Below, one piece after another: positions 10,714 to 41,022 of a stretch of DNA of 64,000 nucleotides. The stretch is taken from assembly GCA_002503545.1 (NCBI GenBank), contig DARY01000027.1, positions 4,165 through 68,164 of the forward strand, in the 5' to 3' direction. The DNA comes from Candidatus Methanomethylophilus sp. UBA78 (GTDB lineage: Archaea; Thermoplasmatota; Thermoplasmata; Methanomassiliicoccales; Methanomethylophilaceae). How positions within the stretch are numbered: the first letter of the stretch is position 1; each line of letters begins with the position of its first letter. The notes beneath the pieces were generated by a model that worked only from the letters and a program-made list of their open reading frames with translations, was not told the DNA's origin and did not search any database. Position numbers and translations under genes: made by a program.

Positions 10714-11523
10714 TCAGATCTCCCCGGCCGCCCTCATCCTCTGAACGCGGTCCAGGGCCTCCCTCGCCCCGGGATAGCCCTGGGCGGCCGAGCGGCGCAG
10801 CAGTTCTATGGCCATGGTGGTGTTCGGTTCCGCGGTCTGCTTCCTCACGTGCATCATGGCCAGACGGTACTGTGCCCGGGCGTCCCCCTTGCTGGCGGCC
10901 GCGCGGAACCACCTCTCGGCCTTGCGCAGGTCCTTCCCGACGCCCTTGCCGTCGTGGTACATGGCCCCCACCGTCGTCTGCGCCTCGGGGAGCTTCCTCT
11001 TGGCCGCCTCGTAGTACCAGCGGAAGGCCTTGTAGTAGTCGGGGAGGGTGCCCTCCCCGCGCTCGTACATGCGTCCGAGCTCGTATTTGGCCTCGGCCGA
11101 GGCGTGCCCCGCCACCTCGAGGAGCATGTTGAAGGCCCTGTCCTCGTCGCGGGCGACGCCCTGTCCCCGGCGGTACATCATGGCGACGGCCGCCTTCGCC
11201 TCGTGGCTGCCCTGCTCCGCCGACCTGGAGAGCCAGAGGAAGGCCTTCTCGTCGGACCTCCCGACGCCGAAGCCCTCGAGGTACCTCCTGCCGAGCTCGT
11301 ACTGCGCCTCCCCGAGGCCGCCCTCGGCGGCGATCTCGATCCATTCGGTGCACTGCTGGGGGGAGAGCAGGTTGTACTCCCCGCCGATTCCGGCGACGGC
11401 GTAGGCCGCCTCGGGACCGCCCGTCCGGTGGATCTCGCCGAGGCATGCCTCGGCGGTCTCCACGTCCCCCGCCTCTATGGCCGCGAACGCCCTCTCGATA
11501 AGTTCCTCGTCCATTTCGTTCAC
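10714..11523 (-). CDS. Sel1-like (SLR/TPR) repeat protein
   Basis: Repeated AQYELGRRYLEGFGV / AKYELGRMYERGEG / AQTTVGAMYHDGKGV units. Confidence 0.9.
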   Translation of the reverse strand: MNEMDEELIERAFAAIEAGDVETAEACLGEIHRTGGPEAAYAVAGIGGEYNLLSPQQCTEWIEIAAEGGLGEAQYELGRRYLEGFGVGRSDEKAFLWLSRSAEQGSHEAKAAVAMMYRRGQGVARDEDRAFNMLLEVAGHASAEAKYELGRMYERGEGTLPDYYKAFRWYYEAAKRKLPEAQTTVGAMYHDGKGVGKDLRKAERWFRAAASKGDARAQYRLAMMHVRKQTAEPNTTMAIELLRRSAAQGYPGAREALDRVQRMRAAGEI

Positions 11524-11581
11524 CGAGGCGTCACGGTACCGGTAACGCCGTATGCGACGATAAAGCAGACGGTGCCCCGTC

Positions 11582-12289
11582 TCACTCCTTCCCCGCCTCT
11601 TTCTCCTCTATGAGCTTTATGTGGTCCTTCGCCCTCACGAATCCGAGTTCGAAGGCCCTCTGGAAGTACTCCTTGGCCTTGCCGAGGTCCCTCTCCGTCC
11701 CGTCCCCGTAGAGGTACAGGACAGCGGTGTCGTAGACCGCCTTGGCGTAGCCGCCCTCGGCGGCGGTCCGGCAGAGGAGGAACGCCTTGGCCGGGTCCTT
11801 CTCCACGCCCCTGCCCTCGTGGTACAGGTGGCCCAGGCTGTAGGCGGCTTCCGGCATGCCCATCGATGCGGCCTTGAGGTACAGGAGGGAGGCGTATCCG
11901 AAGTTCACCTCGCACCCGAGTCCGCTCTCGTAGAAGGTCCCGAGGTTGTAGATGGCGCTGCGGTTGTTCTGCGCCGCCGCCTTCTCGGTCCACTCGAAGG
12001 CCCTGGCGGGGGAGCGCTGCGTGTTCCTGCCGGTGGCGTACATGAGTCCCAACTCGTTCTGCGCGTCGGCGTTCCCGCCGACGGCGCCCTTGCGGAACCA
12101 CATGAGAGCCTTCTTCAGATCCTGTGCGGCGCCGATACCGTAGTAGAGCATGTTACCCACGCGGAACTGCGCCTCCGCGTTGCCGTTCTCGGCGCTTTTC
12201 AGGAAATGCCCGAAAGCGCCCTCGAAATCCTTCTCCTCGAACGCCTTCCTCCCTGCTTCGAATTCGGCGTCCGTCCTGTCTTCTGGCAT
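11582..12289 (-). CDS. Sel1-like repeat protein
   Basis: AQFRVGNMLYYGIG, AQNELGLMYATG, AAYSLGHLYHEGRGV repeats. Confidence 0.9.
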   Translation of the reverse strand: MPEDRTDAEFEAGRKAFEEKDFEGAFGHFLKSAENGNAEAQFRVGNMLYYGIGAAQDLKKALMWFRKGAVGGNADAQNELGLMYATGRNTQRSPARAFEWTEKAAAQNNRSAIYNLGTFYESGLGCEVNFGYASLLYLKAASMGMPEAAYSLGHLYHEGRGVEKDPAKAFLLCRTAAEGGYAKAVYDTAVLYLYGDGTERDLGKAKEYFQRAFELGFVRAKDHIKLIEEKEAGKE

Positions 12290-12331
12290 GGGTGGTACGT
12301 ATGGGGACGGTCGTATTTTACAGATGGTACC

Positions 12332-12715
12332 TCAGGTCCTCGCCGGCCGCCTCCTGGCGGCCTCGCTGATGCACTCCCAGGCCCTCTCGGAGGAGCGTTC
12401 GACGCCGATCCCCTCTTGGTACATCCTGCCGAGGATCAGGAGGGACTCCGGGTCTCCCAGTCCGGCCGCCCGGCGGTAGATGCGGGCGGCCCTCTCGGCG
12501 TCGGAGGGGGCGAAGTCGCCTTCGAAGAACATGCGGCCCAGTTCGCGGAGGGTCTCCACGTCGTCGCTGAGCTCGGCGCCGTAGTACAGGGCCAGGGCCA
12601 TGCGCTCGCTCCTCTCGACGCCCTGCCCCACGTAGTAGAGGCGTCCCAGGCGGAGGCAGGAGGGGCCGTCCCCTTTGACGGCCCCGGATGTCAGGGTCTC
12701 TATAACGTTGACCAT
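12332..12715 (-). CDS. short Sel1-like repeat protein
   Basis: LGRLYYVGQGVERS, LGRMFFEG, LGRMYQEGIGVERS. Confidence 0.8.
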   Translation of the reverse strand: MVNVIETLTSGAVKGDGPSCLRLGRLYYVGQGVERSERMALALYYGAELSDDVETLRELGRMFFEGDFAPSDAERAARIYRRAAGLGDPESLLILGRMYQEGIGVERSSERAWECISEAARRRPART

Positions 12716-13042
12716 GTTAGATTGTATGGTGTATTAAATATATATCCGATAGGATGTTATTAACACATATTGGAAAGGATATGTCAGATGTTCTGGGGCA
12801 TCGCCATCGCTCGCAAACAACTGGATGAAGTATGTCTGGCTCATGCATCGTTTCACGGGATCCGGATCGCCCGGATCATCCTTCGTGACAGCGGTATCCG
12901 CTTTCCGGCCGCGAGTACAGAGAGATCTTTTCTAAGGTGACAGACCCAGACTCCGCATCGGACGGACAATGCTCTGCAGAACGGTCCTGCAGCGGTCCGT
13001 ATCCCCGCAGTCTGGATCATTGAATCCGGGTCGGCTGGCGCC

Positions 13043-13714
13043 TCACCGTCCGCCGATCTCCGCCATCGCCTCGGCGGCCTCCGGGACCCCGGCCTTGGCC
13101 GCCTTCCCGAGCCATTTCCTCGCCTCGCGGTCGTCCTTCTGCACCCCGAGCCTGTCTATGTACATGGTCCCCAGGAGGTATTGGGAAAAGGGGTCGCCCC
13201 TGTCCGCCGCCTTCCTGAGGACGGCGGCCGCCCGGACGTACCTCTCGGATTCGTAGTAGAAGAGACCCAGACGGGAGAGGACGGCCGCATCGTCCGACCT
13301 CTCGGATGCGGAGAGGAGCTCCTCGGCTTTACCGTCGTCCTTCTCCGTCCCCCTGCCTTCGGCGGTGAACATGGCGGCGTAGAGGGCGCCCATGGCGGAA
13401 CCGTGCTCCGCGGCCCGGGTGAAGAGGTCGAAGGCGGTCTCGTCGTCCTTCTCGACGCCGAGTCCCTCCGAGTAGTTGTAGCCGAGGTTGAACTCGGCGT
13501 CGCCGAAGCCCTGGGAGGCGGCGGCCGAGAACCAGTTGTTCGCCTCCTCGAGGTCCTTCTCCACGCCCTCGCCGGAGGCGTAGACGGTGCCGACGAAGGA
13601 CTGGACCTCGGGGTCGCCCTCCTCGGCGTATTGCAGGAGGACGGGGATGCTGTGCTCGTAGTCCCCCTTCTCGAACAGTTCGAAGGCTTGCTCCAGTTCA
13701 GGGTCGGCTGTCAT
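13043..13714 (-). CDS. Sel1-like repeat protein
   Basis: VGTVYASGEGVEKD, AEFNLGYNYSEGLGVEKD, SQYLLGTMY repeats. Confidence 0.9.
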   Translation of the reverse strand: MTADPELEQAFELFEKGDYEHSIPVLLQYAEEGDPEVQSFVGTVYASGEGVEKDLEEANNWFSAAASQGFGDAEFNLGYNYSEGLGVEKDDETAFDLFTRAAEHGSAMGALYAAMFTAEGRGTEKDDGKAEELLSASERSDDAAVLSRLGLFYYESERYVRAAAVLRKAADRGDPFSQYLLGTMYIDRLGVQKDDREARKWLGKAAKAGVPEAAEAMAEIGGR

Positions 13715-13783
13715 GGGGGAGGGAAGGGAGTTGAGGTATTAATGCTGTCGAATTCTTGTTTGAACAGTTTAAAATATAATTAA

Positions 13784-13815
13784 TGGTTGAAGGTATTTGA
13801 TATACCATTCAACCA
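13784..13815. terminator. hairpin just downstream of the island operon
   Basis: TGGTTGAA-GGTAT-(TTGAT)-ATACC-A-TTCAACCA inverted repeat, 16 nt past the last island stop codon. Confidence 0.55.
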
Positions 13816-13831
13816 CTTAAGAGAGTTTAAT

Positions 13832-14401
13832 TTAGTTTTTCAAGTCAATTTTTAAATCATTGAGTTCTTTGAACTCATTTAGGGTTTCTCTCATGAACGA
13901 GATCATTTCCTGAGGTGAGGATATATTCATGACTTTTTCGTGGATTAACTCTAATCCTCCGAGAACATATTCGTCGATGATTTCGCTATTATCCCCGTAT
14001 TTTGATTTAGCTATCAAATTTTCGTTTGATACGTCATTTGTTGGATAATCAAATCTGAGGGCATTATCTATTTTCTCAGAAAATGGAGTATCTGTTGGAT
14101 TTCCATATAGTAAAATTATTTTTCTAAGTCTGTCATAACCATATATTCCGCCTTTATCTGCATAAGCCCATCTGAATCCAGAGGGGTCTGAGTTGTTTGG
14201 ATTGTCTATAGTTGGATCGTAAGTATGCTTTCTGCCTTTCATGAGGCCATAGAGTGCGCAGAACGCATAACCCTCATAAATTTCATTGAATATTTTTTGG
14301 TAAGATGCAGCACCTCCCGTAAGGTCTTTCATACAATCTGCATACTTTCCTCTAAAATTCCATACCTGTGTCGTCTCATTTTTGTTTTTAGAGAAAGCCA
14401 T
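13832..14401 (-). CDS. hypothetical protein, DndE-like accessory of the DndD-like ATPase module
   Basis: Overlaps the ATPase stop by 1 nt; FRGKYA...IF..IYEGYAFCALYGLMKGRK...DEYVLGGLELI pattern resembles, from memory, small partners of DndD-like ATPases. Confidence 0.55.
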   Translation of the reverse strand: MAFSKNKNETTQVWNFRGKYADCMKDLTGGAASYQKIFNEIYEGYAFCALYGLMKGRKHTYDPTIDNPNNSDPSGFRWAYADKGGIYGYDRLRKIILLYGNPTDTPFSEKIDNALRFDYPTNDVSNENLIAKSKYGDNSEIIDEYVLGGLELIHEKVMNISSPQEMISFMRETLNEFKELNDLKIDLKN

Positions 14402-16344
14402 TAATCCGCCTCCACTATACGGGACTGTGTTTCAGATATTTTCTCAATACGGTATTTTTTTCCTACATTTTTTTCAAGAGTTTGAGATGCTACAGACCAA
14501 TCCTTGTCCATTAATGCCATAATCGCTTGTTCTGAAAGTTTTGGCAGTTCTTTGCATATGTTTTTGATGTGTCCTTCGTCTGTATTGGAGAATACTGCAT
14601 CCATGACCAATGGGTATGCTTCTGATCTTAGATCCAGAACGGTGCGTTCTTTGGCAACTTTCAAAAGAGAAGCGATGAATGCAAAATTTTGAACAGTATC
14701 CAATCCTTTTGAATTATCGAGACGATCTCCGCCAACATTCAAAGTAACTTTGTAGTCTGGAGTAAGTTCGATCGTACGTTTTCCATGATACATATTATTG
14801 AATACATTGGTCAATGTCTCTTTTACATCGTCAAATATTTCTTTCGAGTTAGATTCATAGCTTTCCTTAGCTTTTGCACAAAGTGCATTAACATATCTTA
14901 ATTTTTCAAGAATTTCTTTATTGAATCTATCTTCTTTACCGGCAGCACTGAGTTGACGATTGAGATCTTCGATTTTCTTTTGAATTGTTTGTATAGTCGC
15001 TTCATATCTGATTCTGTCTCTATTGAATCCATCTCTTTGGCTTCTAAGGCGCTCATACTCTTCTTTTACAGTATCTGCGTCTCTATTGTCTCCAATTCTG
15101 TCTGTGATGATGGATTGTTCGTACTCCATAACATCGAGAGTGGCTAATTGTTTTGAATATGCAGTATCTAGTCTTTCGAATAGATCTCTTTTCGAATGTT
15201 CTTTTTGTAAGGCAGAAAGGTCATTATTTAGATGGCGGATTTGTGTCCCTATAGATTCTGGGGGTAGATAAGACAATAATTCTATGAGTTCATCTCTGCA
15301 GTTTTTATTTGATGATAAGTCTGTTCCACATATGCATTTTCTACGAGACAGCAGGTAATTTACCGCAACCGCAGTCATGTCGGGAATCCCTTTGTCTTCG
15401 TAATTTAGAGAAACCATATTTTTTAAGATACTTTTAGAAACATAATTTACTATCAGCTCTGCTGTTGCTGGAACAAATGCAGAAACAAGATCTATTTCTG
15501 TGTTGGCAGAATCCTTCTGTATTTCTTTGATTTTTGTATCAAGAACTCTCAATCTGGAAGCGTCTTCTGCATATCCTTGGATTCTACCGAGTTCCTGTGC
15601 TTTACTACTTACAAGGTTTTCAAGAGTATTGTAACGTTTTTCTGCGTCTTTGTAAGATTCTTGAGCTCTTTCAAGTTCATTTTTCTGATTATTTATTTTT
15701 AAATTTATTTCTCCAATGCCCGAATCTTCTTTCATTAGTCCGCGGAGAGTTTTTTCAACATTATTCCGTCCATTTTCTAAATGGTTGATCATATGTTCCA
15801 GCGGAACTAATCCCATTATTGTGTTGATTGAATTTTTGACATTTTCGGGTTTGCGTGATTCGGCTATTTTCTCTCCGTCGAAGAAAAAATATTCTGAAAG
15901 AGACTCTGGGAGAATTTCTTTGAGTTTTATATCTCCTCCCTTGACAGCTATTTTTTCACCGTTTGAGTCGTAGAAGTAAGTCATCGAAGACCGATTAGCG
16001 AGATATGCATCTCCTGATTCTTTAGAGATATATTCATACTTTCTATAGGTCTCATAAGTTATTCCTTGGTGTATAAATGTTAGAGATACTTTGACATCCT
16101 TAGTATCTCCTTTGCGCATTTGTTTACGTACGTCGCTATTTATGACATTTTTTTGATCTGATTTTTTACCAGTAAAGTTGCAATCGTCATACAACACCCA
16201 ACGGAATGCCTGGACAAGCGTGGTTTTTCCACTGGTGTTTTTGCCAAGGAACAGGGTTACATTTTTTTCAGTGTCGGTGGAAAATTCTATTTTTTCATCT
16301 ACGTACTGTCTAAAGTTATACAGATGGAGGGTTTTTAGTAGCAT
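14401..16344 (-). CDS. SMC/Rad50-like ABC ATPase, DndD-like, with CxC hinge motif
   Basis: LYNFRQY, Walker A GKNTSGKTT, YFFFDGEKI, long coiled coil with KCICG, signature NSKGL, Walker B PLVMDAVFSNTD. Confidence 0.88.
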   Translation of the reverse strand: MLLKTLHLYNFRQYVDEKIEFSTDTEKNVTLFLGKNTSGKTTLVQAFRWVLYDDCNFTGKKSDQKNVINSDVRKQMRKGDTKDVKVSLTFIHQGITYETYRKYEYISKESGDAYLANRSSMTYFYDSNGEKIAVKGGDIKLKEILPESLSEYFFFDGEKIAESRKPENVKNSINTIMGLVPLEHMINHLENGRNNVEKTLRGLMKEDSGIGEINLKINNQKNELERAQESYKDAEKRYNTLENLVSSKAQELGRIQGYAEDASRLRVLDTKIKEIQKDSANTEIDLVSAFVPATAELIVNYVSKSILKNMVSLNYEDKGIPDMTAVAVNYLLSRRKCICGTDLSSNKNCRDELIELLSYLPPESIGTQIRHLNNDLSALQKEHSKRDLFERLDTAYSKQLATLDVMEYEQSIITDRIGDNRDADTVKEEYERLRSQRDGFNRDRIRYEATIQTIQKKIEDLNRQLSAAGKEDRFNKEILEKLRYVNALCAKAKESYESNSKEIFDDVKETLTNVFNNMYHGKRTIELTPDYKVTLNVGGDRLDNSKGLDTVQNFAFIASLLKVAKERTVLDLRSEAYPLVMDAVFSNTDEGHIKNICKELPKLSEQAIMALMDKDWSVASQTLEKNVGKKYRIEKISETQSRIVEAD

Positions 16345-16481
16345 TCTTTATACACCTCATCTATTATTTTCATAATGTTTTCGACGGCAGCGCGATCCCC
16401 ATCTATCATGCCATCCCCTCTTTCATAATCCATTATTTTTTTCCACATTTTCTCTATTTTATTTTGATTTAAATCATTCAT
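16335..16481 (-). CDS. 48-aa small protein coupled to the helicase and ATPase genes
   Basis: Manual translation MNDLNQNKIEKMWKKIMDYERGDGMIDGDRAAVENIMKIIDEVYKECY*; overlaps the helicase end and the ATPase start, filling the gap exactly. Confidence 0.75.
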   Translation of the reverse strand: MNDLNQNKIEKMWKKIMDYERGDGMIDGDRAAVENIMKIIDEVYKECY

Positions 16482-18645
16482 TTTGATCTTCCCCGTATGT
16501 GTTTAAAAGATCTTCGATAGTTATTTTGTATGCTTTGGAGATTCTTTTGAATACATTCTCAGTTTCTTCAGGATTCAGTGAAATTCTAGAGAATTCTTTC
16601 ATTCTGAGAATTTCTTTGGATAACGCTTTCATTTCCAGTCCAGAATGTTCACCTAAGGATCTGTCGCTATCAAGACTTTTAGGAATCACTATTAAATCGT
16701 AAATGTCTGCGTAGTCCTTTCCCGGAGATAAGCGGAGGACCCTTCCTCTTCTTTGAATATATTCACGAGGATTGTTATTACTGCTCATTATGACTGCGGT
16801 TCTTATTGAAGGGATGTCAATCCCCTCATCCAGACAAGAGATTGCAACAATTCCATCTATTTCGCCGTTATCAAATTCTTTTATGATTCTTTTACGCTCT
16901 TGGGCATTTTCTTCGTAAGTTATGCGAGATATTTTGAAACCCAGTCCATTTAATCCCAAGATGCGAGATGCTTTGTCGATGACCTTTAAGAAATTTGAAT
17001 GACTATTTTTGTCAAAATCTCCTTCTTCATCTGTCTTGGTTTTCCCACAGTATACTAAGAAGTGGTTTTTATTTTCAAAACCCATCATTAGTTTTTCTAG
17101 AGCCGAGAATTTTGATAGCATCTTGGCGTTTAATGAGTAACTATATTCGATATACTCGTTTTTTGCAGATGTTTTTTCGCGTTCGCTCGCATACGGATTC
17201 GATAAAATCTGATCGAGTTTTTCATTGGATTCTACAATCTGAGAGTACTCTTCTTCTGAGTAATTGCATTCTATTGGATGATAGAGATAATTTGCCAGAT
17301 ATGTTCCTATGGCAGACTCTATCGGTAAATTTATGCATTCTTCTCCGAAGTATTTTTTTAGTTTTTCAGTCCCCAACGCGTCATTATGTCTGTCAATAGT
17401 TGCAGAAAGAGCCAGACGATATTTTGCATTCGGTGGCAATTTGGTTAAGCGATTAATGGAACCCATGTTGTGGGCTTCATCGACTACTATCGCCAGGTTT
17501 TTGATTTTAGAAATCCACTTTTGGATTTCGGTTGATGAAAATGAAGATATTGTCGTAATCAAACAAGAATTGCGAGGAGATCTTTCGTAAAGTGACATGT
17601 GTCTTCTAAATTTATCTTTCCACATTCCAGATGATGAGTCTGAATGGCCGATTATTGGTATGACTCCGAATGATTTTACTTCCTCGCCCCATTGATCTAC
17701 TAAATGTTTTTGTGGAGCCACAATTATAGTGAATATATTTTCATCCGGATGATCATTGTACAGTTCTTCCAATGCACACAATGCGGTTTTTGTCTTACCT
17801 GTGCCTGTGGCCATATTGAATATTCCACGACCATCATGTTCAAGCCAGTTTTTTATCGCATCTTTCTGGTATGGGCGCTTTATCAGTTCTTTTGGCGACT
17901 TAAAGTATCTTGATTTTGGTATGCAGTCGTATTTTTCGAGAAGTTTTTTGTCAAGATCTAGATTTATTTCGCCTACTCTATATCCACCTATAAGATCTTG
18001 GACGACCTGTGGCATTTCTAAAACCATCACAGATTCATCAGAGTTGTTCCAAAGATCTTCGAATTTTTTGGATAACGTCGCAATGCGTTCCTCATTATTT
18101 GCACTTGCCGAAGACACTTCTATAAATTCCCAATTTCCACCCATTCCATTTTTGGATTCATTCATCGATCCGCTGAACGCAGCCTTATTTCCAAACGAGT
18201 CTGTCATGATTCCAAATTTTGGGTGAAATACAGCGTCGGGGTAATCGTCAAGGTTGCGCATCACTGCGATTTTAATTTTTAAAATGCCTGCAGCGATCAA
18301 TTCGGACAGAAGAGATATGCGATCAAGAGATGTAGCGTCGTCTGGATTTTCGAAGCTGTTAACCATAGATGTGCCAACAGTTTGTATTAGATCATACCCC
18401 TTTTTTATTGCAGATATGTCTTCTTGATTCAGACGAGGTGACGTTATGATTCTTATTTTTCCGCCTCTTGATGCAAGATCACATACTCCAATTGAAATTT
18501 CAACAAGAGATGATGACGTAAAATAGCCTGATGCTCTATCATAGCGATCACTGTTTTTCAGCGCAGGTATGAAAAATTGCCGAATGATATCATCTTTTGG
18601 TGGAAAATAGAAATTTTTGAATTCTACGTCCTTTAGGTTATTCAT
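16474..18645 (-). CDS. PLD-family nuclease fused to SF2 (DEAH) helicase
   Basis: YDRASGYFTSSSL, FHPKFGIMTD...FSGSMNES (HKD/GSxN), MATGTGKT, VVDEAH, LSAT, LDEGIDIP, QRRGRVLR. Confidence 0.9.
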   Translation of the reverse strand: MNNLKDVEFKNFYFPPKDDIIRQFFIPALKNSDRYDRASGYFTSSSLVEISIGVCDLASRGGKIRIITSPRLNQEDISAIKKGYDLIQTVGTSMVNSFENPDDATSLDRISLLSELIAAGILKIKIAVMRNLDDYPDAVFHPKFGIMTDSFGNKAAFSGSMNESKNGMGGNWEFIEVSSASANNEERIATLSKKFEDLWNNSDESVMVLEMPQVVQDLIGGYRVGEINLDLDKKLLEKYDCIPKSRYFKSPKELIKRPYQKDAIKNWLEHDGRGIFNMATGTGKTKTALCALEELYNDHPDENIFTIIVAPQKHLVDQWGEEVKSFGVIPIIGHSDSSSGMWKDKFRRHMSLYERSPRNSCLITTISSFSSTEIQKWISKIKNLAIVVDEAHNMGSINRLTKLPPNAKYRLALSATIDRHNDALGTEKLKKYFGEECINLPIESAIGTYLANYLYHPIECNYSEEEYSQIVESNEKLDQILSNPYASEREKTSAKNEYIEYSYSLNAKMLSKFSALEKLMMGFENKNHFLVYCGKTKTDEEGDFDKNSHSNFLKVIDKASRILGLNGLGFKISRITYEENAQERKRIIKEFDNGEIDGIVAISCLDEGIDIPSIRTAVIMSSNNNPREYIQRRGRVLRLSPGKDYADIYDLIVIPKSLDSDRSLGEHSGLEMKALSKEILRMKEFSRISLNPEETENVFKRISKAYKITIEDLLNTYGEDQNE

Positions 18646-18802
18646 CAGGCATCCTGTCCAGATCTTAAGATCTATGGCACAGTATATGGATGTGGCGGAT
18701 TGATAACTTAAAAAGGTTATCTTTCATTCATCGATTTTTAATTTTATGTACCAAATGATACAATTGGTTTCAAATTAAATTCAAAACCGCCGGAAGTATG
18801 TT

Positions 18803-20827
18803 TTAATTCTCCCTCTTGTAATGGATCATTTCTAATCTTGTAGAAACATCTTTTTCACTAGTTTCTGAAACGAATTCGATTAATTTCTTTATGTTTGTAG
18901 TGCGTCTTATGGCGGTAGAATGTCTGATTCCAGATTTTGATATTATGTCACTCAGATAAACATGACCTTCTTTGGTATGGATGATTAATTGCTGGATTAT
19001 AGGTATTCTGAGTATCAACTTTCTATAGATGTCTGCGCGGTCCTTTATATTCATTTTTGAGATATATTCTCCAAGTGGACTAAGCAGTACATATTTTCTG
19101 TGATCTTTGGGGTCATTAGAGGTTTTTATTATAGCTAAATCCAGCATCGATGCTGTTTTGGCATGGTTCTCTCCGAATTTTGTATTTGATACTTTGTTAT
19201 TTTTGCCTCTGTATAGTTTTGAACCAAGGGTTTCGTAGCTTAATTCTGCATCGCATTCTTTTAAAACATCTATGAGCAGATCAGTACAATAACTCAAATC
19301 GCCGCCAAATTGTGGAATGAATGCGGAATCAATCGAAACATATGGGAATGTATCTATGAGTTTAATTATGTCTGAAATAGAGTGTGATTTAAGAGCCCTA
19401 ATTAAGCGTTCACAGGCTTTTTCAGAATTCGTTCTGCAACCGCATGTTGGATTTTTTCTCACCAGACAATAAAGATCCAAGGTTTTTTCATAATAATACT
19501 TTAGCCATTCGTCTGTTTTGGACGCTACTACGGAGTCCCATGTAATTGAATTGATTATGCAGATTTCACAGGGTTCAGTTTTTATGCGCCCGTAGTTAAA
19601 CGAAAGATCATATTCATTCTCATTTTCATATTTTAAGTAAAAATATTTTTTTGCAATTTCAGGATATTTTGATTCGAAATCTGTCATCGCTTTAAATGCA
19701 GAGCAGTATTCTTCCCCCTTCGTATAGTCCTGATTGGCTTTGCAAAATTCTCCGAATGATTTTTTTTTAAAGAATTGCGGTTGGTTGCACCAGCGGGCCA
19801 GCTGTACGTATACGTCTCTAAATTTACTGGTGTTGTAGTCTTCATAGCGCATAATGTATGGCAGACATCCGTGTTCCATCAGGATTTTGATGCGTTCAAA
19901 TGTGTTGATTACATCGATTAACTCTGGGTCGTAATTCGACAATGTTATGTTGCTATTATGTGGATCATAGGCGCATAAGACATAGAGTTTGGTCGTCTTT
20001 TTACAATATTTACGCCATATCCTAAGTTTCTTTATAATTATGTCTTTATCTTCAATGTGGTCAAATGCGAATATATAATCGCCGTAATACATAGACTGCG
20101 AAAGAATCTTTGCACGTTTTTCCGTAATTAGGCGGATATCTAGCCCTTGTCTGAATTGAAAAGGTTTTCCTGTGAAATTTAATTGGTTCAGTATGTTTTC
20201 CCAATCTTTTCCGCAAGCAAGGATGTTATCATCCCAAAGGTATATTCCGGGTCTTGTTTCATCTAAAAACTCGTTCACATCTGCGTGTTTTTTGCAACGA
20301 GAGTATTTTTTGTTAACACAGAACGAACATTTCCTAAAACAACCTCTTGTCGTAAATCCTATTGAGAAATACTTATAGTCGTTGAAAGATGATTCTTTGT
20401 AGCCCTCCTCCACCATTTTAGCGATATATTCATCATAGAGGGTGTAATCTGGCATTATATGTTCTATGCACGGATCTAGATTTCTCCCTCCATCATTGAA
20501 GAATCCTGTTCCGCCGATTGACAAAACAGGTTTCTTTTTTGGTTCCGTATCCTCTAGTGTTTCAATAATAGACGTGTTTAGTAGTTTTGGGTTGTTGACT
20601 ACTTCTGGAAACTTTTCTGTGATTTGATGAGGTAATTTTGTAAAATTAAAGACTTTTGAAATTATGATAGCATCATATTCTTCTAGATTATTCAGTAAAT
20701 CGCCAAAGATTAATTGAGTGACGTGGCCTTTATCTTTGCAATATTTGCTGATTTTCATTTGAGCCAAGTTGGGATGTCTTGTACCATTATCTATTAGATC
20801 TGCATCGATCATCCCAACTTTTAACAT
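18803..20827 (-). CDS. radical SAM protein with C-terminal putative DNA-binding domain
   Basis: TTRGCFRKCSFC (CxxxCxxC), WDDNIL, QGLDIRL, PYIMRY, LARWCN; additional C-terminal ~170 aa (IPQF...KFGENHAKTA...LRIPIIQ...STAIRRTTNIKKL). Confidence 0.85.
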   Translation of the reverse strand: MLKVGMIDADLIDNGTRHPNLAQMKISKYCKDKGHVTQLIFGDLLNNLEEYDAIIISKVFNFTKLPHQITEKFPEVVNNPKLLNTSIIETLEDTEPKKKPVLSIGGTGFFNDGGRNLDPCIEHIMPDYTLYDEYIAKMVEEGYKESSFNDYKYFSIGFTTRGCFRKCSFCVNKKYSRCKKHADVNEFLDETRPGIYLWDDNILACGKDWENILNQLNFTGKPFQFRQGLDIRLITEKRAKILSQSMYYGDYIFAFDHIEDKDIIIKKLRIWRKYCKKTTKLYVLCAYDPHNSNITLSNYDPELIDVINTFERIKILMEHGCLPYIMRYEDYNTSKFRDVYVQLARWCNQPQFFKKKSFGEFCKANQDYTKGEEYCSAFKAMTDFESKYPEIAKKYFYLKYENENEYDLSFNYGRIKTEPCEICIINSITWDSVVASKTDEWLKYYYEKTLDLYCLVRKNPTCGCRTNSEKACERLIRALKSHSISDIIKLIDTFPYVSIDSAFIPQFGGDLSYCTDLLIDVLKECDAELSYETLGSKLYRGKNNKVSNTKFGENHAKTASMLDLAIIKTSNDPKDHRKYVLLSPLGEYISKMNIKDRADIYRKLILRIPIIQQLIIHTKEGHVYLSDIISKSGIRHSTAIRRTTNIKKLIEFVSETSEKDVSTRLEMIHYKREN

Positions 20828-20977
20828 GATTCGTGAGTAATGTTGCGATCATTTATTTACGTTACGATCTATTGAGAAATTTGTTATTGACATGATTGGA
20901 ATGGGATTTACAATAAGGTAAAGTTTTGAATTGAGCGAGTATAATGAATTTTTCATACCTGTAATTTATCTACAATC

Positions 20978-21154
20978 ATGGGAAACAGAATGGTCATTGG
21001 TTGCCCCTGCTGCGGCGATGCCGAGTCCCCCATCCTGAAGACCTGCTGGGACGAGGACGGCGGCCACATAGAGGTCTACCGGTGCGTCTGCGGTTGCAGG
21101 TTCGCCGTCACCGTCGAGGTGCTCGACCGTCCGTCCGCCGACGGTCAGGTTTAA
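20978..21154 (+). CDS. 58-aa Cys-rich zinc-ribbon protein
   Basis: Manual translation MGNRMVIGCPCCGDAESPILKTCWDEDGGHIEVYRCVCGCRFAVTVEVLDRPSADGQV*; host-like codons; below the ORF-track cutoff. Confidence 0.65.
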   Translation: MGNRMVIGCPCCGDAESPILKTCWDEDGGHIEVYRCVCGCRFAVTVEVLDRPSADGQV

Positions 21155-23019: not shown

Positions 23020-23106
23020 GCCGAGATAGCCCAGCCCGGTAAGACGCAAGCCTGGAAAGCTTGTGGGAGCAATCCCTCGGGAGTTCAAATCTCCCTCTCG
23101 GCGCCA
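23020..23106 (+). tRNA. tRNA-Ser (GGA), CCA encoded
   Basis: GCCGAGA...TCTCGGC-G-CCA; anticodon arm CAAGC-CT GGA AA-GCTTG; long variable arm; GGGAG-TTCAAAT-CTCCC. Confidence 0.95.
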
Positions 23107-23433
23107 TTATTGCCTTATTACATTAAAATCGAACTCGCAGAGCCGTAAACCATGTCGGTTCTTATCAAGGCTCGCATGGCGTCCGTTGCCATATGTGCAT
23201 TCTATGCATCGCCAGCCACCGTCTGTCCGGTGCCGCCGCATGTGCGGAGAACCCTCTGTCCGCTCCGACCTCCCTCCGGTACTGGGCCATCTTCTGTCCA
23301 GGTTGTTGAGTGTCGATTCCGGCCGGCTCTCTTAACGTAGACGAAAAACCGTGTCCAAAGCAGAAAGTAACCATATGCTACGGTTCACCGCCAAATACTT
23401 ATTGTCTCGGGGCGTCATAAATTCCGAAAGGAC

Positions 23434-23748
23434 ATGTTCGACTACGGGAAAGCAGAGGAAGCAGTCAGGAAGATCATAGCATCTGTGAATCCCAAAATGA
23501 TAATCGTTTTCGGCTCGGTTGCGCGCCGTGAGGCGCGCGACGACAGCGACCTCGATCTCCTGGTGGTTTTCGAGGGAGATGTCGATGAAAAGCAGATGTA
23601 TTATTCAATATCCGGTCTTTTCATCGGTTTGCACCTGCCGTTTGACCTGATCATCATGTCCGAGGACAAATTCAACCGCTACAAAGATGATGGGTTCTCG
23701 TTCACGCACGAAGTGGTTTCCACAGGGGAGATCGTTTATGCCCAATGA
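23434..23748 (+). CDS. minimal nucleotidyltransferase (MNT/MntA-type antitoxin)
   Basis: IIVFGSVAR.EARDDSDLDLLVV motif. Confidence 0.88.
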   Translation: MFDYGKAEEAVRKIIASVNPKMIIVFGSVARREARDDSDLDLLVVFEGDVDEKQMYYSISGLFIGLHLPFDLIIMSEDKFNRYKDDGFSFTHEVVSTGEIVYAQ

Positions 23749-23896
23749 TGATTCGAACGAATCCATCATCGCGGCTGAACAAGACCTCAGCGCTCTGGAA
23801 GATCTTAGACGATTCGGGTTCGGTTTATCGCCGCAATCGTGTACATTCGGATCATCAGAGGTAATCATCGACCATGGAGACGTATTGCTTGCTTGA
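23738..23896 (+). pseudogene. probable truncated HEPN toxin remnant
   Basis: Start overlaps the MNT stop; AAEQDLSALEDL resembles a HEPN first helix, after which similarity is lost; only 52 aa. Confidence 0.4.
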
Positions 23897-24010
23897 TGGG
23901 CTGTGCTGTTGTTCCGAATGTCTGGTATGACATAATTTCCAATGTTTCCGATTGCCATTTCTTATTCCTCGCAATGGTGTATTGAAGAAGTTTAGACAAC
24001 TTGGCAAAAG

Positions 24011-25231
24011 GTGAAAGAGGACGTTACCGCCGGTGCGGTCCACATCACCGGACCCAAGGGGTGCGGGAAGAGTACGACGGGCGCACGCCAATGCGCCACC
24101 GAGTACCGTCTGCAGGACCCCGAGGGCGCGTCCCTGAGGATGCTGGCGGCGACCAAGCCCTCCGAACTGTTCAAAGCCGAGAAACCGATACTGCTGGACG
24201 AGTGGGGGGAGGTCCCGTCCCTCTGGGACGCCGTCAGGAACGAGGTCGACAGGAGCGACACGATGGGCGGTTTCATCCTCACGGGTTCCTCGGTACCCAG
24301 GGAGGAAGGGTACCGCCATTCCGGTGTGGACAGGATGGCGCCCATGAGGATGCGTACGATGTCGCTTTTCGAGTCGGGGGATTCGGACGGCTCCGTCTCC
24401 CTGGGATCCCTGTTCGACGGGGATCTCGAGGTCTCCGGCAGATCGTCCCACACTTTAGGCGACATAGCGTTCCTGATCGTCAGGGGCGGATGGCCCAGGA
24501 GTGTCCGTGTCGACAGGGAGTATGCGCAGGACGTGGTGATGAACTACTACAACGCCACCATCGGGATAGACGCGTTCAGGGTCGACGGCAGGAAGAAGAA
24601 CGTGGAGGCGGTGGACAGGCTCATGCGTTCGTATGCCAGGAACATCTCCACCACGGCATCGATGAAATCGATCATCGACGACGTGATATCCCGCGACAGG
24701 CTGGTCACCCAATCAACCGTGGAGGAATATGTTGATTCGCTGACCAGGCTGTTCATAATCGAGGATGTGCCCGCATGGTCCCATAACGTCAGGTCCAAAT
24801 CGGCGATCAGGACGACGCCCAAAAGGCATCTCGCGGACCCGTCGCTCGCGGCCGCATCCCTGAACATGGACGGGGAGAAGCTGATCTCCGACATGAAGAC
24901 GTTCGGGTTCTTCTTCGAATCCCTCTGCGTGAGGGACCTGAGGGTGTATGCGGACCCTCTGAAAGGCAAGGTGAGGCATTACCGCGACGGCAACGGTCTC
25001 GAGGTGGATGCCATCGTCGAACTGCGTGACGGCAGATGGGGGGCGATAGAGGTCAAGATGGGCGCGGGCGACATCCCCGAGGCCGAGGAGAACCTCGTGA
25101 AACTGAGGGACCTGGTGGTGGACGGAGGAGGCCGGGAGCCGGCCTTCATGATGGTCCTGATATCGGCCGGATACGTCTCGGTGACGGAGAAAGGCGTACT
25201 CGCGGTCCCGATAGGGTGCCTGGGGCCGTGA
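24011..25231 (+). CDS. AAA+ ATPase with DUF4143/PD-(D/E)xK-like C-terminus
   Basis: GPKGCGKSTT, LLDEW, FILTGS, TPKRHLADPSLA, EVDAIVE...AIEVK; N-terminus looks slightly short. Confidence 0.85.
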   Translation: MKEDVTAGAVHITGPKGCGKSTTGARQCATEYRLQDPEGASLRMLAATKPSELFKAEKPILLDEWGEVPSLWDAVRNEVDRSDTMGGFILTGSSVPREEGYRHSGVDRMAPMRMRTMSLFESGDSDGSVSLGSLFDGDLEVSGRSSHTLGDIAFLIVRGGWPRSVRVDREYAQDVVMNYYNATIGIDAFRVDGRKKNVEAVDRLMRSYARNISTTASMKSIIDDVISRDRLVTQSTVEEYVDSLTRLFIIEDVPAWSHNVRSKSAIRTTPKRHLADPSLAAASLNMDGEKLISDMKTFGFFFESLCVRDLRVYADPLKGKVRHYRDGNGLEVDAIVELRDGRWGAIEVKMGAGDIPEAEENLVKLRDLVVDGGGREPAFMMVLISAGYVSVTEKGVLAVPIGCLGP

Positions 25232-36788: not shown

Positions 36789-38764
36789 TGACCCAGAGCG
36801 TTCTGGTTTTCGCAGGGACGACCGAGGGCGGGGAGATCGCGGACCTCCTCGCCGGAGCCGGCGTCATGGTGCATGTGTGCGTCGCAACCGAATACGGCAG
36901 GACCTCGGTCAGGGAGCATGGGAACGTGGAGGTCTCCTCCCGCCCGCTCTCCCCCGAGGAGATGAGGGACCTCATGAGGAGGTATCCCGTCGTGGTGGAT
37001 GCGACGCACCCGTACGCGACCAGGATATCGGCGCATGTGAAGGAGGCCTGCGCCGACACCGGTGCGGAGTACATCCGCCTCGTCCGCCCCGCCTCAGAGG
37101 GTTACGGGGGCATGAAGGTGGTGGACACCATCGACGAGGCGGTGGAGTACCTTAAAGGCACCGAGGGCCCCATACTGACGACCACCGGCAGCAAGGAGCT
37201 GGCCAAGTACACGGGGATCCCCGGGTTCAGGGACAGGGTGTTCGCCAGGGTGCTGTCCCTCCCGGGGGTCGTGGAGGTCTGCGCCGCGCTGGGGTTCGAG
37301 GGGAAGAACCTCTTCGCCATGCAGGGCCCGTTCTGCGAGGAGATGGACTACGGCATGCTGGTGCAGACGGGTGCCAGGTACCTGGTGACCAAGGACTCCG
37401 GCGCCCCCGGCGGTTTCGACGAGAAGGTCAGGGCCGCCCGCAGGGCCGGTGCCGAGGTCATCATAGTGGGCAGGCCCGAGGAACAGCCCGGGACCGACTT
37501 CGAAGGGACCTTGGGTATCCTGTCGTCCAGGCTGGGCATCGCCCTGAGACGTCCCAGGAGGCTGCTTTCCATAGTCGGGACCGGGGTCGGTCCCGGGACC
37601 GGCCTGACCGCCGCCGGTTCCGCCGCCGTCAGGTCCTCCGACCTGGTGGTCGGTGCGGAGAGGATGCTCCGCATACCCGAGGCCGAGGGCAAGGCGTCGC
37701 TCCGCGAATACGCCCCCGACAGGATATTCGACTATCTGGCACATCATCCGGAGTACCGGCGCGCCGCCCTCCTGGTCTCGGGGGACATCGGGTTCTACAG
37801 CGCCACCAGGTCCGTCCTGTCCGCCCTGGACCCGTCGGAGTACGATGTGGAGACCCACTGCGGGATCTCCTCGGTCCAGTACCTCTGCGCCAGGGCGGGG
37901 ATCCCCTGGCAGGACGTCAGGTTAATCAGCGCCCACGGCAAGGGGGCGAACTTCGTCGGAGAGGTCAGGAGGAACGGGACGGTCTTCTCCCTGCTCAACG
38001 GCAGGGACGGCGTCATGGAGATGTGCCAGCAGCTCGTGGATTACAACATGGGTGTGAACGTCGCCGTCGGATGCGACCTCGGGTACCCCGAGGAGAAGTA
38101 CTTCTACGGGACCCCCGCGGAGATCATGGTATCCGACATCGGCGGCCTATGCGCCGCCCTCGTCTTCAACCCCCGCCCCGACGGCCGCTGTCCGATAGGC
38201 ATCCCCGATTCCGAGTTCATAAGGGGCGACGCCCCCATGACCAAGTCGGAGGTCAGGGCGCTGTCCGTGGCCAAGATGAAGCTCTCGGAGGACAGCGTGG
38301 TCTACGACGTGGGGGCGGGCACCGGTTCGGTCTCCGTCGAGGCGGCCCTGGTCGCCGTGTCCGGCACCGTCTACGCCATAGAGAAGGAGGAGGTCGCGGC
38401 CGCCCTCATAGACCAGAACAGGAGGAAGTTCGGGACGCCCAACGTGGAGATCGTCACCGGCAGGGCCCCCGAGGCCCTGGCCGGGCTCCCCTCCCCCGAC
38501 TGCGTGTTCGTGGGCGGTTCGTCGGGCAACCTGAAGGAGATCGTCTCGGCGGTCCTGGAGAAGAACCCGCGCTGCAGGTTCGTCGTCAACTCGGTCACCC
38601 TGGAGACGGTATCCGAGGTGCTGGGTCTTTCCTCCTGCTGCCGCGTGGAGCAGGAGGAGATAGTCTGCGTCAACGCGGCGAACTCCCGCCGTCTGGGACG
38701 TTACAACCTCATGACCGCGCAGAACCCCGTCTACATAGCCGTCTTTAGGGGGGTCGCGGAATGA
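36785..38764 (+). CDS. fused precorrin-6A reductase / C5- and C15-methyltransferase (CbiJ-CbiE-CbiT)
   Basis: FAGTTEG, DATHPYA, MQGPF, TKDSG (CbiJ); SGDIGFYS, GISS, SAHG (CbiE); PMTKSEVR, DVGAGTGSV (CbiT). Confidence 0.92.
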   Translation: MMTQSVLVFAGTTEGGEIADLLAGAGVMVHVCVATEYGRTSVREHGNVEVSSRPLSPEEMRDLMRRYPVVVDATHPYATRISAHVKEACADTGAEYIRLVRPASEGYGGMKVVDTIDEAVEYLKGTEGPILTTTGSKELAKYTGIPGFRDRVFARVLSLPGVVEVCAALGFEGKNLFAMQGPFCEEMDYGMLVQTGARYLVTKDSGAPGGFDEKVRAARRAGAEVIIVGRPEEQPGTDFEGTLGILSSRLGIALRRPRRLLSIVGTGVGPGTGLTAAGSAAVRSSDLVVGAERMLRIPEAEGKASLREYAPDRIFDYLAHHPEYRRAALLVSGDIGFYSATRSVLSALDPSEYDVETHCGISSVQYLCARAGIPWQDVRLISAHGKGANFVGEVRRNGTVFSLLNGRDGVMEMCQQLVDYNMGVNVAVGCDLGYPEEKYFYGTPAEIMVSDIGGLCAALVFNPRPDGRCPIGIPDSEFIRGDAPMTKSEVRALSVAKMKLSEDSVVYDVGAGTGSVSVEAALVAVSGTVYAIEKEEVAAALIDQNRRKFGTPNVEIVTGRAPEALAGLPSPDCVFVGGSSGNLKEIVSAVLEKNPRCRFVVNSVTLETVSEVLGLSSCCRVEQEEIVCVNAANSRRLGRYNLMTAQNPVYIAVFRGVAE

Positions 38765-40107
38765 GCCTCGCCCGCTTCATGATCGCCGCCCCGGCCAGCG
38801 GCAGCGGCAAGACGACCGTCACCTGCGGCATCCTCCAGGCCCTCGTGAACAGGGGGATGAAGGTATCCTCGTTCAAATGCGGGCCCGACTACATCGACCC
38901 GATGTTCCACTCGAGGGTGATCGGGACCAAGTCCAGGAACCTCGATTCGTTCTTCTGCGACGACGACACCCTCAGATACCTGTTCTGCCGCACGGCGGAG
39001 GATTCCGACATCTCGGTCATCGAGGGGGTGATGGGATTCTACGACGGCATCCGCGCCGCAGGCACCGAGGGGTCCTCCTACGATGTGTCCCAGAAGCTCG
39101 AGGCGCCCGTCGTCCTCCTCGTCAACTGCAGAGGTGCCAGCATGTCGGTCGTGCCCGTCATCAAGGGCTTCAGGGAGTTCAGGGAGAACCGCATCGCCTG
39201 CGTAATCCTCAACAACATGAGCGCCCATGTGTACCCGGAGGTCAAGGCGGCCGTGGAGAGGGAGACGGGGCTCACGGTCGCCGGCTACGTGCCGAAGCTC
39301 AAGGACATGGTCCTGGAGAGCAGGCATCTGGGTCTCGTCCTCCCCGACGAGGTGGCCTCCCTCAGGGAGAGCCTCGACCGCCTGGCCGGGATGCTCGAGG
39401 AGACCGTCGACATCGACGCCCTCGTCGAGCTGGCCCGCGGAGCCTCCGAGATATCCGGCAGGGCGCCCGCGCACGGCGTGCTTCCCGGCAAGGTGAAGGT
39501 CGGTCTGGCCTATGACGACGCATTCTGCTTCACCTATGAGGACAACATCGCCCTCCTCGAGGAGTGCGGGGCGGAGATCGTCCGCTTCTCTCCTATGAGG
39601 GATGGCAGGATGCCCGACGGGATCAGCGGCATAATCCTGTCCGGAGGATACCCGGAGCTCCACGGGGAGGTCCTCAGCGGCAACGCCTCCATGCTGGAGG
39701 ATATCCGGGGGAAGGTCGCGGCCGGCATGCCCTGCCTCGCGGAGTGCGGCGGCTTCATGTACCTCCACGAGAGGATGGAGGACGCCGACGGGAGGATGTG
39801 GCCCATGGCCGGGGTAATAAAAGGGGAGGTCCGCAACACCGGCAAACTCAGCCGCTTCGGGTACGTCTCCCTCTCCTCTGGCGACCCGGGGTCGATAATC
39901 GCCGGTGGCTGCAAGGGGCATGAATTCCATTACTGGGACAGTACCGACTGCGGGACCTCGTGGGAGGCCGTCAAGACCTCCGGCAAGAAGTATCAGTGCG
40001 GACATGAGGAGGGCGGCCTTTCGGCCGGGTTCCCCCATCTGTACTACTACTCCAACCCCGACGTCGCCTACCGGTTCCTGCTGAAGTGCCAGCAGTACGG
40101 GGTCCGA
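38761..40107 (+). CDS. cbiA: cobyrinate a,c-diamide synthase; no stop at the expected end (frame stays open to 41406)
   Basis: SGSGKTT, KCGPDYIDPMFH, EGVMG, SRHLGL, AECGG, GHEFHY, FPHLYY; homology ends near 40100 where the codon is CGA, not a stop. Confidence 0.85.
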
Positions 40108-40896
40108 TCAGATCTCGACGCCGCCCATGAGGGCGCCGGAGATCATCCCGACCGCGATCACGACGACGATGCCCAGGAGGAAGATCCCCATCTGGCGGAG
40201 GTCCTTCCTCCGGTGGTGGAACGCCTCGGGCAGCATATCGCACATGGTGACGAACGCGAACACCCCGACGGAGAAGCACAGTGCCAGTCCGGCCATCCCC
40301 AGCCCGCCGGTGTCGAGGGCGTAGTACGAGACGACGGCCGCCAGGGGCGAGATGAGGCTGAAGACGGTCAGGTACAGCCAGGTCCTTTCCCTGCGGTGCG
40401 ACATGAGCATGGTCGAGGCCAGCGAGAACGCCACCACCACCTTGTGCAGGCAGAGGGCGATGAGCACCATCGCCCCCACATCCTCACCGGCGATGAAGGC
40501 CGCCGCCAGGGCGAGGCCGTCGAAGAAGGAGTGGATGGAGAGTCCGAGGAACGCCGAGAGGGATGTCACGTCGTGCTCGCAAGCCTCGCATCCGTCGTAC
40601 TCGTCCTTGTCCAGGTACTTCTTGACCAGGAAGTCCATCAGGAACAGCAGCAGGAATCCGAGGAGCATCATGTACGCCGCGTTCTCCGTCGAGACGCCGT
40701 TGTCAAGGGCCCTCTCGAGCGACTCCGGCAGGAGCATGATGAAGAGGACGCCGAGCATGATCCCGGTGCTGAAGGTGATGAGCATGTGCAGTTTTATCTT
40801 CCTGCTCTTCCTGAACATGAAAGGCAGGCGCGCCGCCGCTATAGTGACGACGAATATGGCTACCGCGAAGAGGATGAGCGTGACGTCTTCTCCCAT
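40108..40896 (-). CDS. ZIP family metal transporter
   Basis: GIMLGV....LLPE, IHSFFDGLA, LHK, MLPEAFH; about 8 TM segments; loop CEACEH. Confidence 0.92.
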   Translation of the reverse strand: MGEDVTLILFAVAIFVVTIAAARLPFMFRKSRKIKLHMLITFSTGIMLGVLFIMLLPESLERALDNGVSTENAAYMMLLGFLLLFLMDFLVKKYLDKDEYDGCEACEHDVTSLSAFLGLSIHSFFDGLALAAAFIAGEDVGAMVLIALCLHKVVVAFSLASTMLMSHRRERTWLYLTVFSLISPLAAVVSYYALDTGGLGMAGLALCFSVGVFAFVTMCDMLPEAFHHRRKDLRQMGIFLLGIVVVIAVGMISGALMGGVEI

Positions 40897-40917
40897 GCAT
40901 CTCGTGTGGCCGTCTTA

Positions 40918-40946
40918 TTATTAATGTCTATTGAACAGGTTAATAA
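40918..40946. promoter_or_regulatory. palindromic operator 1, TTATTAA-N15-TTAATAA
   Basis: Perfect 7-15-7 inverted repeat over the ZIP promoter; repeated at 40972-41000. Confidence 0.75.
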
Positions 40947-40971
40947 TTCCACATCGCCGGGAGGCCGTTTT

Positions 40972-41000
40972 TTATTAACCCTCTGTGCTGGTTTTAATAA
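40972..41000. promoter_or_regulatory. palindromic operator 2, TTATTAA-N15-TTAATAA
   Basis: Same half-sites and spacing with a different spacer; over the promoter of the NikR-like gene. Confidence 0.75.
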
Positions 41001-41022
41001 CTGCGAAGTTTTTTCCGTCCTC

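Follow-up and report, generated by a model that had tools for sequence, protein, structure and literature searches.

Genes of the locus

Analysis of a 64,000-nucleotide stretch of Candidatus Methanomethylophilus sp. UBA78 (contig DARY01000027.1, positions 4,165 to 68,164; hereafter the window) revealed a low-GC island with five genes, namely one for a radical S-adenosylmethionine (SAM) protein, in the following called rSAM, and four genes of a PbeABCD module (Table 1). An earlier sequence-only reading had described five intact open reading frames (ORFs) of these lengths on the minus strand of an AT-rich island, which was borne out by the ORF list, the GC content, and the motifs. The GC content is 0.34–0.37 for positions 14001–21000 and about 0.6 in the flanks; for the island as a whole it is 0.36 compared to 0.60 for the genome. 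The four pbe ORFs overlap by 8, 10, and 1 nt, and the rSAM gene is separated from pbeA by a gap of 157 nt. Apart from the island, the window encodes an archaeal lysyl-tRNA ligase and topoisomerase VI subunit B, which mark the host as an archaeon, as well as cobalamin biosynthesis genes. A search of sequencing runs found the stretch in one DNA run (X1), as one contig with zero letter differences, and listed no RNA runs; since X1 may be the source of the assembly, this match is no independent confirmation.

Table 1. Features of the rSAM–PbeABCD locus (window coordinates)
Feature	Position	Strand	Remarks
rSAM gene, 674 aa	18803-20827	-	ORF list
CxxxCxxC (C163, C167, C170), predicted [4Fe-4S] site	20318..20341	-	sequence CFRKCSFC at residues 163-170
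Four-cysteine predicted metal site (C420, C423, C454, C462)	19442..19570	-	between barrel and winged helix
Winged-helix region, residues ~490-670, MarR/PadR-like	18818..19360	-	VIA-align Z ~8-9, middling
pbeA, 723 aa	16474-18645	-	single-HKD PLD nuclease fused to SF2 helicase
pbeB position, 48-aa protein	16335-16481	-	assigned by position
pbeC, 647 aa	14401-16344	-	CxC-type ABC ATPase
pbeD, 189 aa	13832-14401	-	DndE-like double ribbon-helix-helix protein
Variable low-GC slot	13723-20997	.	between Sel1-repeat gene and small gene plus GNAT gene

The PbeABCD module

Comparison with the PADLOC models assigned the nuclease-helicase to PbeA (E 2e-196; TIGR04095 reached 418 bits, below its cut-off of 600) and the ATPase to PbeC (E 2e-89, versus 1e-28 for DndD). 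In PbeA, the Pfam domains PLDc_2, ResIII, and Helicase_C were detected together with the motifs HPKFGIMTD, GSMN, TGTGKT, DEAH, and QRRGR, and PbeC displays GKNTSGKT, CICG at residue 337, and MDAVF. The 48-aa protein had no match among the PADLOC, NCBIfam, Pfam, and PHROG profiles, and homologues of it are found at the equivalent place in three other loci (L196, L078, and L079). Likewise, the 189-aa protein gave no direct PADLOC match; two of its relatives matched PADLOC PbeD weakly (E 5e-4 and 1e-3), and its family profile matched other proteins at the PbeD position with a probability of 88%. Its predicted model consists of two beta-alpha-alpha repeats, for which the two best ranks among 48,161 chains were taken by DndE structures at modest scores (7x4e, Z 5.8; 5wtu, Z 4.0), while a profile comparison of the family with six DndE sequences gave no match. 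Judged from these comparisons, all genes of the island except rSAM make up the named PbeABCD antiviral module, with the 48-aa gene assigned to PbeB by its position. Since this module has already been named and experimentally tested, any novelty is confined to the rSAM gene. The identity of the core with this named system had not been stated in the sequence-only reading; rSAM matches no PADLOC family.

The closest described counterpart is the DndCDEA-PbeABCD system of Haloterrigena jeotgali A29 (Xiong 2019, PMC6459918), which shares the pbeA-B-C-D order, the PbeA and PbeC scores, and the DndE-like fold of PbeD. In the window, however, dndCDEA is neither adjacent nor found in the assembly, and a gene encoding rSAM with its winged helix-turn-helix (wHTH) region lies upstream instead. 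In the available text of that paper, phosphorothioate and methylases are the only partners named for Pbe, and its supplement contains the term 'radical SAM' in one of eight files, as genome annotation rows. PbeABCD has also been equated with the CxC ABC-ATPase/DndE systems (Rakesh 2024, PMC10853773), which share the HKD-SF2 protein, the small protein, the CxC ATPase, and the DndE cognate. Their partners in the accessible main text are phosphorothioate (Dnd) genes and cytosine methylases, whereas the partner in the window is rSAM. There, 'radical SAM' occurs twice, both times referring to DndC, and some such systems are suggested to mediate entirely different modifications. A full-text literature search, with partial coverage of the key papers and supplements, found the rSAM-PbeABCD pairing described nowhere.

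Profile scans of the five ORFs revealed no methyltransferase, DndC, desulfurase, or transglycosylase, as the sequence-only reading had stated. In the host assembly (87% complete), no DndC above cut-off and no match to DndB, DndE, SspB, or SspC was found, and DndC above cut-off was present in none of ten rSAM-carrying genomes examined; a sulfur system acting in trans was rejected for the host within the limits of this completeness. Other host contigs carry two C5 methylases, two PAPS-reductase-like genes, and two desulfurases, of which the C5 methylases sit in cassettes of their own and the PAPS-reductase-like genes in regions with the GC content of the host. Two C5 methylase cassettes in G000 (C27:24371-27014 and C10:39975-45635) display lower GC and uncharacterised neighbours and are likely separate restriction-modification loci.

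The radical SAM protein

No PADLOC, NCBIfam, or Pfam model was matched above cut-off by rSAM, the Pfam radical SAM family PF04055 being reached with E 0.022 only, but residues 4–363 matched PHROG 9298, a family of phage radical SAM domain proteins (E 9e-45). The phage forms in this family have 300–430 aa and lack the C-terminal regions of the window protein. Among 7,996 scored candidates, 3,877 were homologues. The CxxxCxxC motif is invariant in 117/117 aligned homologues and in 15/15 rows across subfamilies, and the four cysteines C420, C423, C454, and C462 are invariant in 117/117 full-length homologues. An AlphaFold model (pLDDT 92) showed a reduced B12-binding-like Rossmann domain, a radical SAM barrel, a four-cysteine domain, and the winged-helix region, which many related loci encode as a gene of its own. 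By its sequence motifs and modelled fold, rSAM is a member of the radical SAM superfamily.

A sequence search of solved structures gave no hit below E 0.1, neither with the protein nor with the family profile, and an atlas search using an rSAM homologue returned only unnamed or generic radical SAM clusters. At the level of the fold, residues 1–400 of the model matched MgmA (9ccb) with Z 17.3 (rmsd 4.0 over 295 residues), followed by AprD4 (6fd2, Z 16.4), MiaB (7mjv, Z 15.4), and RimO (Z 15.0), as well as OxsB, TsrM, CysS, and TokK. With these cobalamin-type enzymes and methylthiotransferases, rSAM shares the Rossmann domain and the barrel (Z 10–17 over 277–329 residues), but at an identity of 9–15%, with a shortened N-terminal domain and with the four-cysteine and winged-helix regions added. 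The distant rSAM subfamilies L222 and L239 exceed the cut-off of the B12-binding family PF02310, and subfamilies of this type align to the window protein with 25% identity over 289 residues. The window protein itself does not match PF02310, and its fold alignment begins at residue 1. Because the N-terminal domain is shortened, cobalamin binding by this protein is doubtful.

Further candidate assignments were rejected. Methylthiotransferases bind a second cluster through three cysteines that are conserved in their N-terminal part; in the rSAM family, no cysteine before C163 is conserved (C30 in 31%, C120 in 1%), and TIGR00089 scored 15.9 bits versus a cut-off of 251. A queuosine-type (QueE/Dpd) enzyme found no match in the PADLOC, NCBIfam, and Pfam libraries, nor did the PADLOC viperin models match.

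As a side observation, two rSAM homologues from the host's order carry one in-frame TAG each, at differing places (L196:8650-9921 in G019 and L234:3390-5534 in G156); in G019, the pbe genes are intact despite the TAG. These could be nonsense mutations or sites of amber read-through. Pyrrolysine is used by some methanogens.

Partners of PbeA and of rSAM

In order to anchor the comparison on PbeA, this protein alone, without rSAM, served as the query, which gave 10 hits among 251 genomes from the host's order, 12 among 399 genomes of one bacterial class, and 15 among 301 genomes of another. From 34 PbeA regions, 27 loci with PbeA and PbeC and more than 5 kb were kept. Left out were L205 (not PbeA-anchored), L213, L217, L228, and L229 (no PbeC), L226 and L227 (less than 3 kb), and the genomes G000, G251, G252, G258, and G260, which had been chosen via rSAM. 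The partners of the 27 loci, some of them on short contigs and several with methylases that have their own nuclease and perhaps do not serve Pbe, were rSAM in 7, Dnd in 6, Ssp in 5, and a methylase in 6, with no partner in 3. Of the seven rSAM loci, four belong to distant subfamilies for which the references came from those same loci, and two had been met earlier via rSAM. Dnd, Ssp, or methylase genes accompanied none of these seven, versus 17 of the 20 others (Fisher p 1.4e-4, overstated because kin loci are not independent). The sequence-only reading had named recurrent rSAM neighbours that exclude methylases as support for its proposal, and this agrees with the PbeA-anchored counts and with the recurrence of rSAM across phyla described below. 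In five loci (L206–L209 and L218), PbeABCD adjoins an Ssp-type cluster of desulfurase, SspB, SspC, and PAPS reductase, and the PbeA clade of these loci is nearest to that of the window. As far as their available text goes, both Pbe papers (PMC6459918, PMC10853773) name Dnd and methylases as partners, with Ssp unnamed.

Starting from rSAM, 21 loci from genomes and 80 from metagenomes (the 80 best among 372 confirmed ones) were collapsed at 90% identity into 70 cellular clusters. PbeA was the neighbour in 34 of them, a ParB/SNF2 module in 12, GmrSD-like genes in 3, and AIPR in 1, leaving 20 that were classified as other or too short, one of which has rSAM facing a PD-(D/E)xK nuclease gene. In 39 of the 41 loci with both genes, rSAM or the split wHTH gene lies co-oriented directly upstream of pbeA, with a gap of at most 30 nt in 30. 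Among the named hosts are members of Bacillota, Actinomycetota, and Chloroflexota, and the operon is present in Enorma massiliensis phI, Collinsella ihumii GD8, and Collinsella sp. BA40. In the second bacterial class, the family profile, four rows of which derive from the same 301 genomes, found rSAM in 12 of them; the nine non-seed hits lie beside Pbe genes (6), beside ParB/SNF2 only (2), or among small unannotated genes (1). In the host's order, the family occurs in 23/251 genomes, mostly away from Pbe, in contexts that include ParB/SNF2, a HerA-SMC cassette, HSP90 plus an effector, and C5 methylase or PAPS reductase clusters. Since close relatives adjoin unrelated restriction modules, rSAM probably works without a fixed protein partner, as far as gene neighbourhoods can tell.

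Several of these contexts recur as arrangements of their own. The module of a ParB-like gene, a 135-aa gene, an SNF2 helicase gene, and a second ParB-like gene (L011:6862-11461 and 11 further clusters; L222, L230, L231, and L235) often includes a wHTH gene, has only partial PADLOC matches, and was always beside rSAM among loci reached via rSAM or PbeA. Loci of the host's order combine an HSP90-like ATPase, a distant rSAM, and a variable third gene for a BglII-like nuclease, DUF2321, or TIR (L240:7211-11044, L241:5832-9547, and L243:5661-9482). Two copies are decayed, with rSAM fragmented (L022:4914-6384 and L026:9995-12134); in L022, PbeD follows, pbeA and pbeC being absent between.

Viral copies

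The window protein is 47% identical to a protein of the archaeal virus vir335. Viral rSAM loci (the best 80 of 153) formed 48 clusters. The flanks contain a methylase gene in 20 of these, a PAPS reductase gene in 6, and a SAM synthetase gene in 3, and 22 clusters have at least one of the three; the counts are given without a background rate. Named phages agree with this pattern, rSAM standing alone among DNA methylases.

Phylogeny

The PbeA tree (41 rows, quick method) placed the window in a clade of four rows, all of them rSAM-linked, which joins Ssp- and Dnd-linked PbeA with a support of 95; three or more changes are required to explain the distribution of the rSAM label. In the rSAM tree (FastTree, 63 chosen cores), GmrSD-linked rows lie nearest to the window, and for the Pbe label the minimum is nine changes. 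These changes suggest that writer and effector have been re-paired often, which, according to the available literature, is already known for modification and restriction modules.

A putative DNA-marking role of rSAM

Based on sequence and model, the locus is probably a PbeABCD system lacking its usual marking partner, whose role would be taken by the upstream rSAM writing a putative mark on host DNA. A DNA-marking function appears likely because rSAM fills the slot of three known marking systems, moves between unrelated restriction modules, has a domain of a DNA-binding type, and is retained by viruses on its own, as a methylase is. It is a more evenly balanced question whether the widespread rSAM family constitutes a further cellular class of DNA marking beside SAM methylases, phosphorothioation, and deazaguanine insertion, one with radical chemistry in anaerobes, at least five unrelated restriction modules, and viral camouflage copies.

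In the proposed mechanism, the winged helix would bind DNA and supply the choice of site. The barrel, with its [4Fe-4S] cluster and SAM, would then make a 5'-deoxyadenosyl radical and alter a base or deoxyribose at an unactivated position. On account of the cobalamin-type architecture of the model, C-methylation would be the most likely outcome, though another mark is possible. PbeCD would scan the DNA, and the host mark, like phosphorothioate in the published system, would license PbeABCD to stop unmarked viral DNA from replicating; the nuclease of PbeA may in addition cut it. Viruses carrying the bare enzyme would mimic the mark.

The sequence-only reading had gone further in assuming that the ATPase and helicase cut unmarked DNA and that loss of the writer would be toxic for the cell. 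Both assumptions are now doubtful. In the available text of Xiong 2019 (PMC6459918), Pbe defence requires the mark, degradation of viral DNA was not seen, and deletion of the marking genes led to no growth defect, whereas cleavage is argued from the HKD domain in Rakesh 2024 (PMC10853773), as far as that text was accessible. If rSAM acts like the published marking genes, its mark may activate or guide PbeABCD instead of protecting the chromosome against a nuclease that is permanently active. Cells without rSAM should then lose their protection but survive.

Several points weigh against a DNA-marking role. The enzymes with the closest folds have a protein (MgmA), tRNA (MiaB), or a small sugar (AprD4) as substrate, and none of them acts on DNA. 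In the B12-scoring subfamilies, the GG motif is followed by a segment of about 20 residues that is missing from the window subfamily. The winged helix is absent from many homologues, among them the ones in the PbeA clade to which the window belongs (L196, L078, and L079), a distant subfamily pairs with HSP90 and variable effectors, and a preprint, in its available text, reads an HSP90-rSAM-PAACC triad, which may belong to the same family, as toxin-antitoxin-like. A methylase lies in the flank of 2 of the 34 rSAM-Pbe clusters. Furthermore, effectors occur without a writer, namely in 3/27 Pbe loci, in 165/553 PbeAC loci without a modification neighbour (according to the accessible part of PMC6459918), and in the cassette of G011, relatives of which stand beside rSAM elsewhere. 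Finally, with an assembly that is 87% complete, a writer gene at another place in the host could have escaped detection.

Some of these points would suit an rSAM that modifies a protein or a free nucleotide. Such an enzyme could regulate or arm the defence complex, or its product could be a signal or an antiviral nucleotide, as has been suggested for viperins and Ophion. The best fold match, MgmA, methylates a protein residue, RimO is also among the matches, and both the HSP90-linked subfamily with its TIR, BglII-like, or DUF2321 genes and the triad of the preprint would fit. Ophion (bioRxiv 10.1101/2025.09.30.679545) and prokaryotic viperins likewise have a radical SAM enzyme in an antiviral system; the Ophion partners PHP and PRTase are both absent from the window, and, in the available description, Pbe and a winged helix are unmentioned for Ophion. 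Partner switching among close relatives argues, however, against one protein substrate, and rSAM occupies a DNA-marking slot, carries a winged helix, and in viruses stands alone among DNA methylases. Together with the unmatched viperin models, this makes a protein or nucleotide substrate unlikely.

Another conceivable target is the invading DNA, which rSAM might damage, or from which it might strip or on which it might flag a viral modification for the neighbouring nuclease or helicase. GmrSD-type partners (Pfam GmrSD_N and GmrSD_C) are present, and such nucleases can be modification-dependent; radical SAM chemistry can break bonds, as in the dehydratase AprD4, and the tail is of a DNA-binding type. 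We nevertheless regard this activity as improbable. The bare viral enzyme within DNA-modification clusters fits self-protection better, the exclusion of Dnd, Ssp, and methylase genes would be unexpected for an added effector, and, according to the available sources, the phosphorothioate-coupled restriction protein SspE has the DUF262-DUF1524 architecture as well.

A similarly low probability applies to rSAM being an independent passenger of a defence island, with Pbe being solitary or using a mark made elsewhere in the genome. The frequency of solitary PbeAC, the 157-nt gap, the differing nearest relatives of the two genes, and the methylase, PAPS-reductase-like, and desulfurase genes on other host contigs would be in line with it. 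On the other hand, the tight and repeated operonic coupling across phyla, the repeated recruitment on the PbeA tree, and the exclusion pattern speak for a functional link, and the host methylases and PAPS-reductase-like genes lie in their own cassettes and in host-GC regions, respectively. Altogether, marking of host DNA by rSAM is the reading that we prefer.

The insertion site and other features of the window

Both flanks of the island have matches in G011, a complete genome from the same genus; the DNA similarity ends at 13722 and restarts at 20998, and in between G011 harbors a different low-GC cassette of 6.4 kb with four genes, one of them HerA-like. Matching flanks with a different cassette identify the site as a swappable slot, which, by its gene content, probably serves for defence cassettes. 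The island ends lack an att-like pair among the repeat families shown, and a promoter scan (23 sites versus 25.5 expected) was uninformative, as it used a bacterial consensus for an archaeal host. The G011 cassette (L254:3441-9145) encodes a 349-aa protein, a HerA-like ATPase, an SMC-like ATPase, and a protein of 280–300 aa, and it also occurs in L205:195-5882 (G008) and L234:136-2686 (G156). A PADLOC scan gave no whole-system match for it. In G011 it is without rSAM, but in G008 and, partly, in G156 it faces an rSAM gene.

Downstream of the island, four tandem Sel1-repeat genes lie on the minus strand (10714-13714), their repeats being detectable at the codon level only. Positions 23020-25231 comprise tRNA-Ser(GGA), a minimal nucleotidyltransferase gene (23434-23748), a stretch of lower GC, and an AAA_14-DUF4143 gene, and may represent another small insertion or the remains of a toxin-antitoxin locus. 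An 881-aa protein is encoded at 38761-41406, the first half of which is a cobyrinic acid a,c-diamide synthase.

Implications

The rSAM protein is a candidate partner for many PbeABCD modules without a sulfur or methyl writer, a question left by both Pbe papers. If it indeed marks DNA, anaerobic bacteria, archaea, and viruses would carry a radical-chemistry DNA modification that has been missed by methylome assignment. This would add a new chemical class to microbial epigenetics and an enzyme that edits unactivated DNA positions, and it might explain some of the barriers to DNA transfer in anaerobes.

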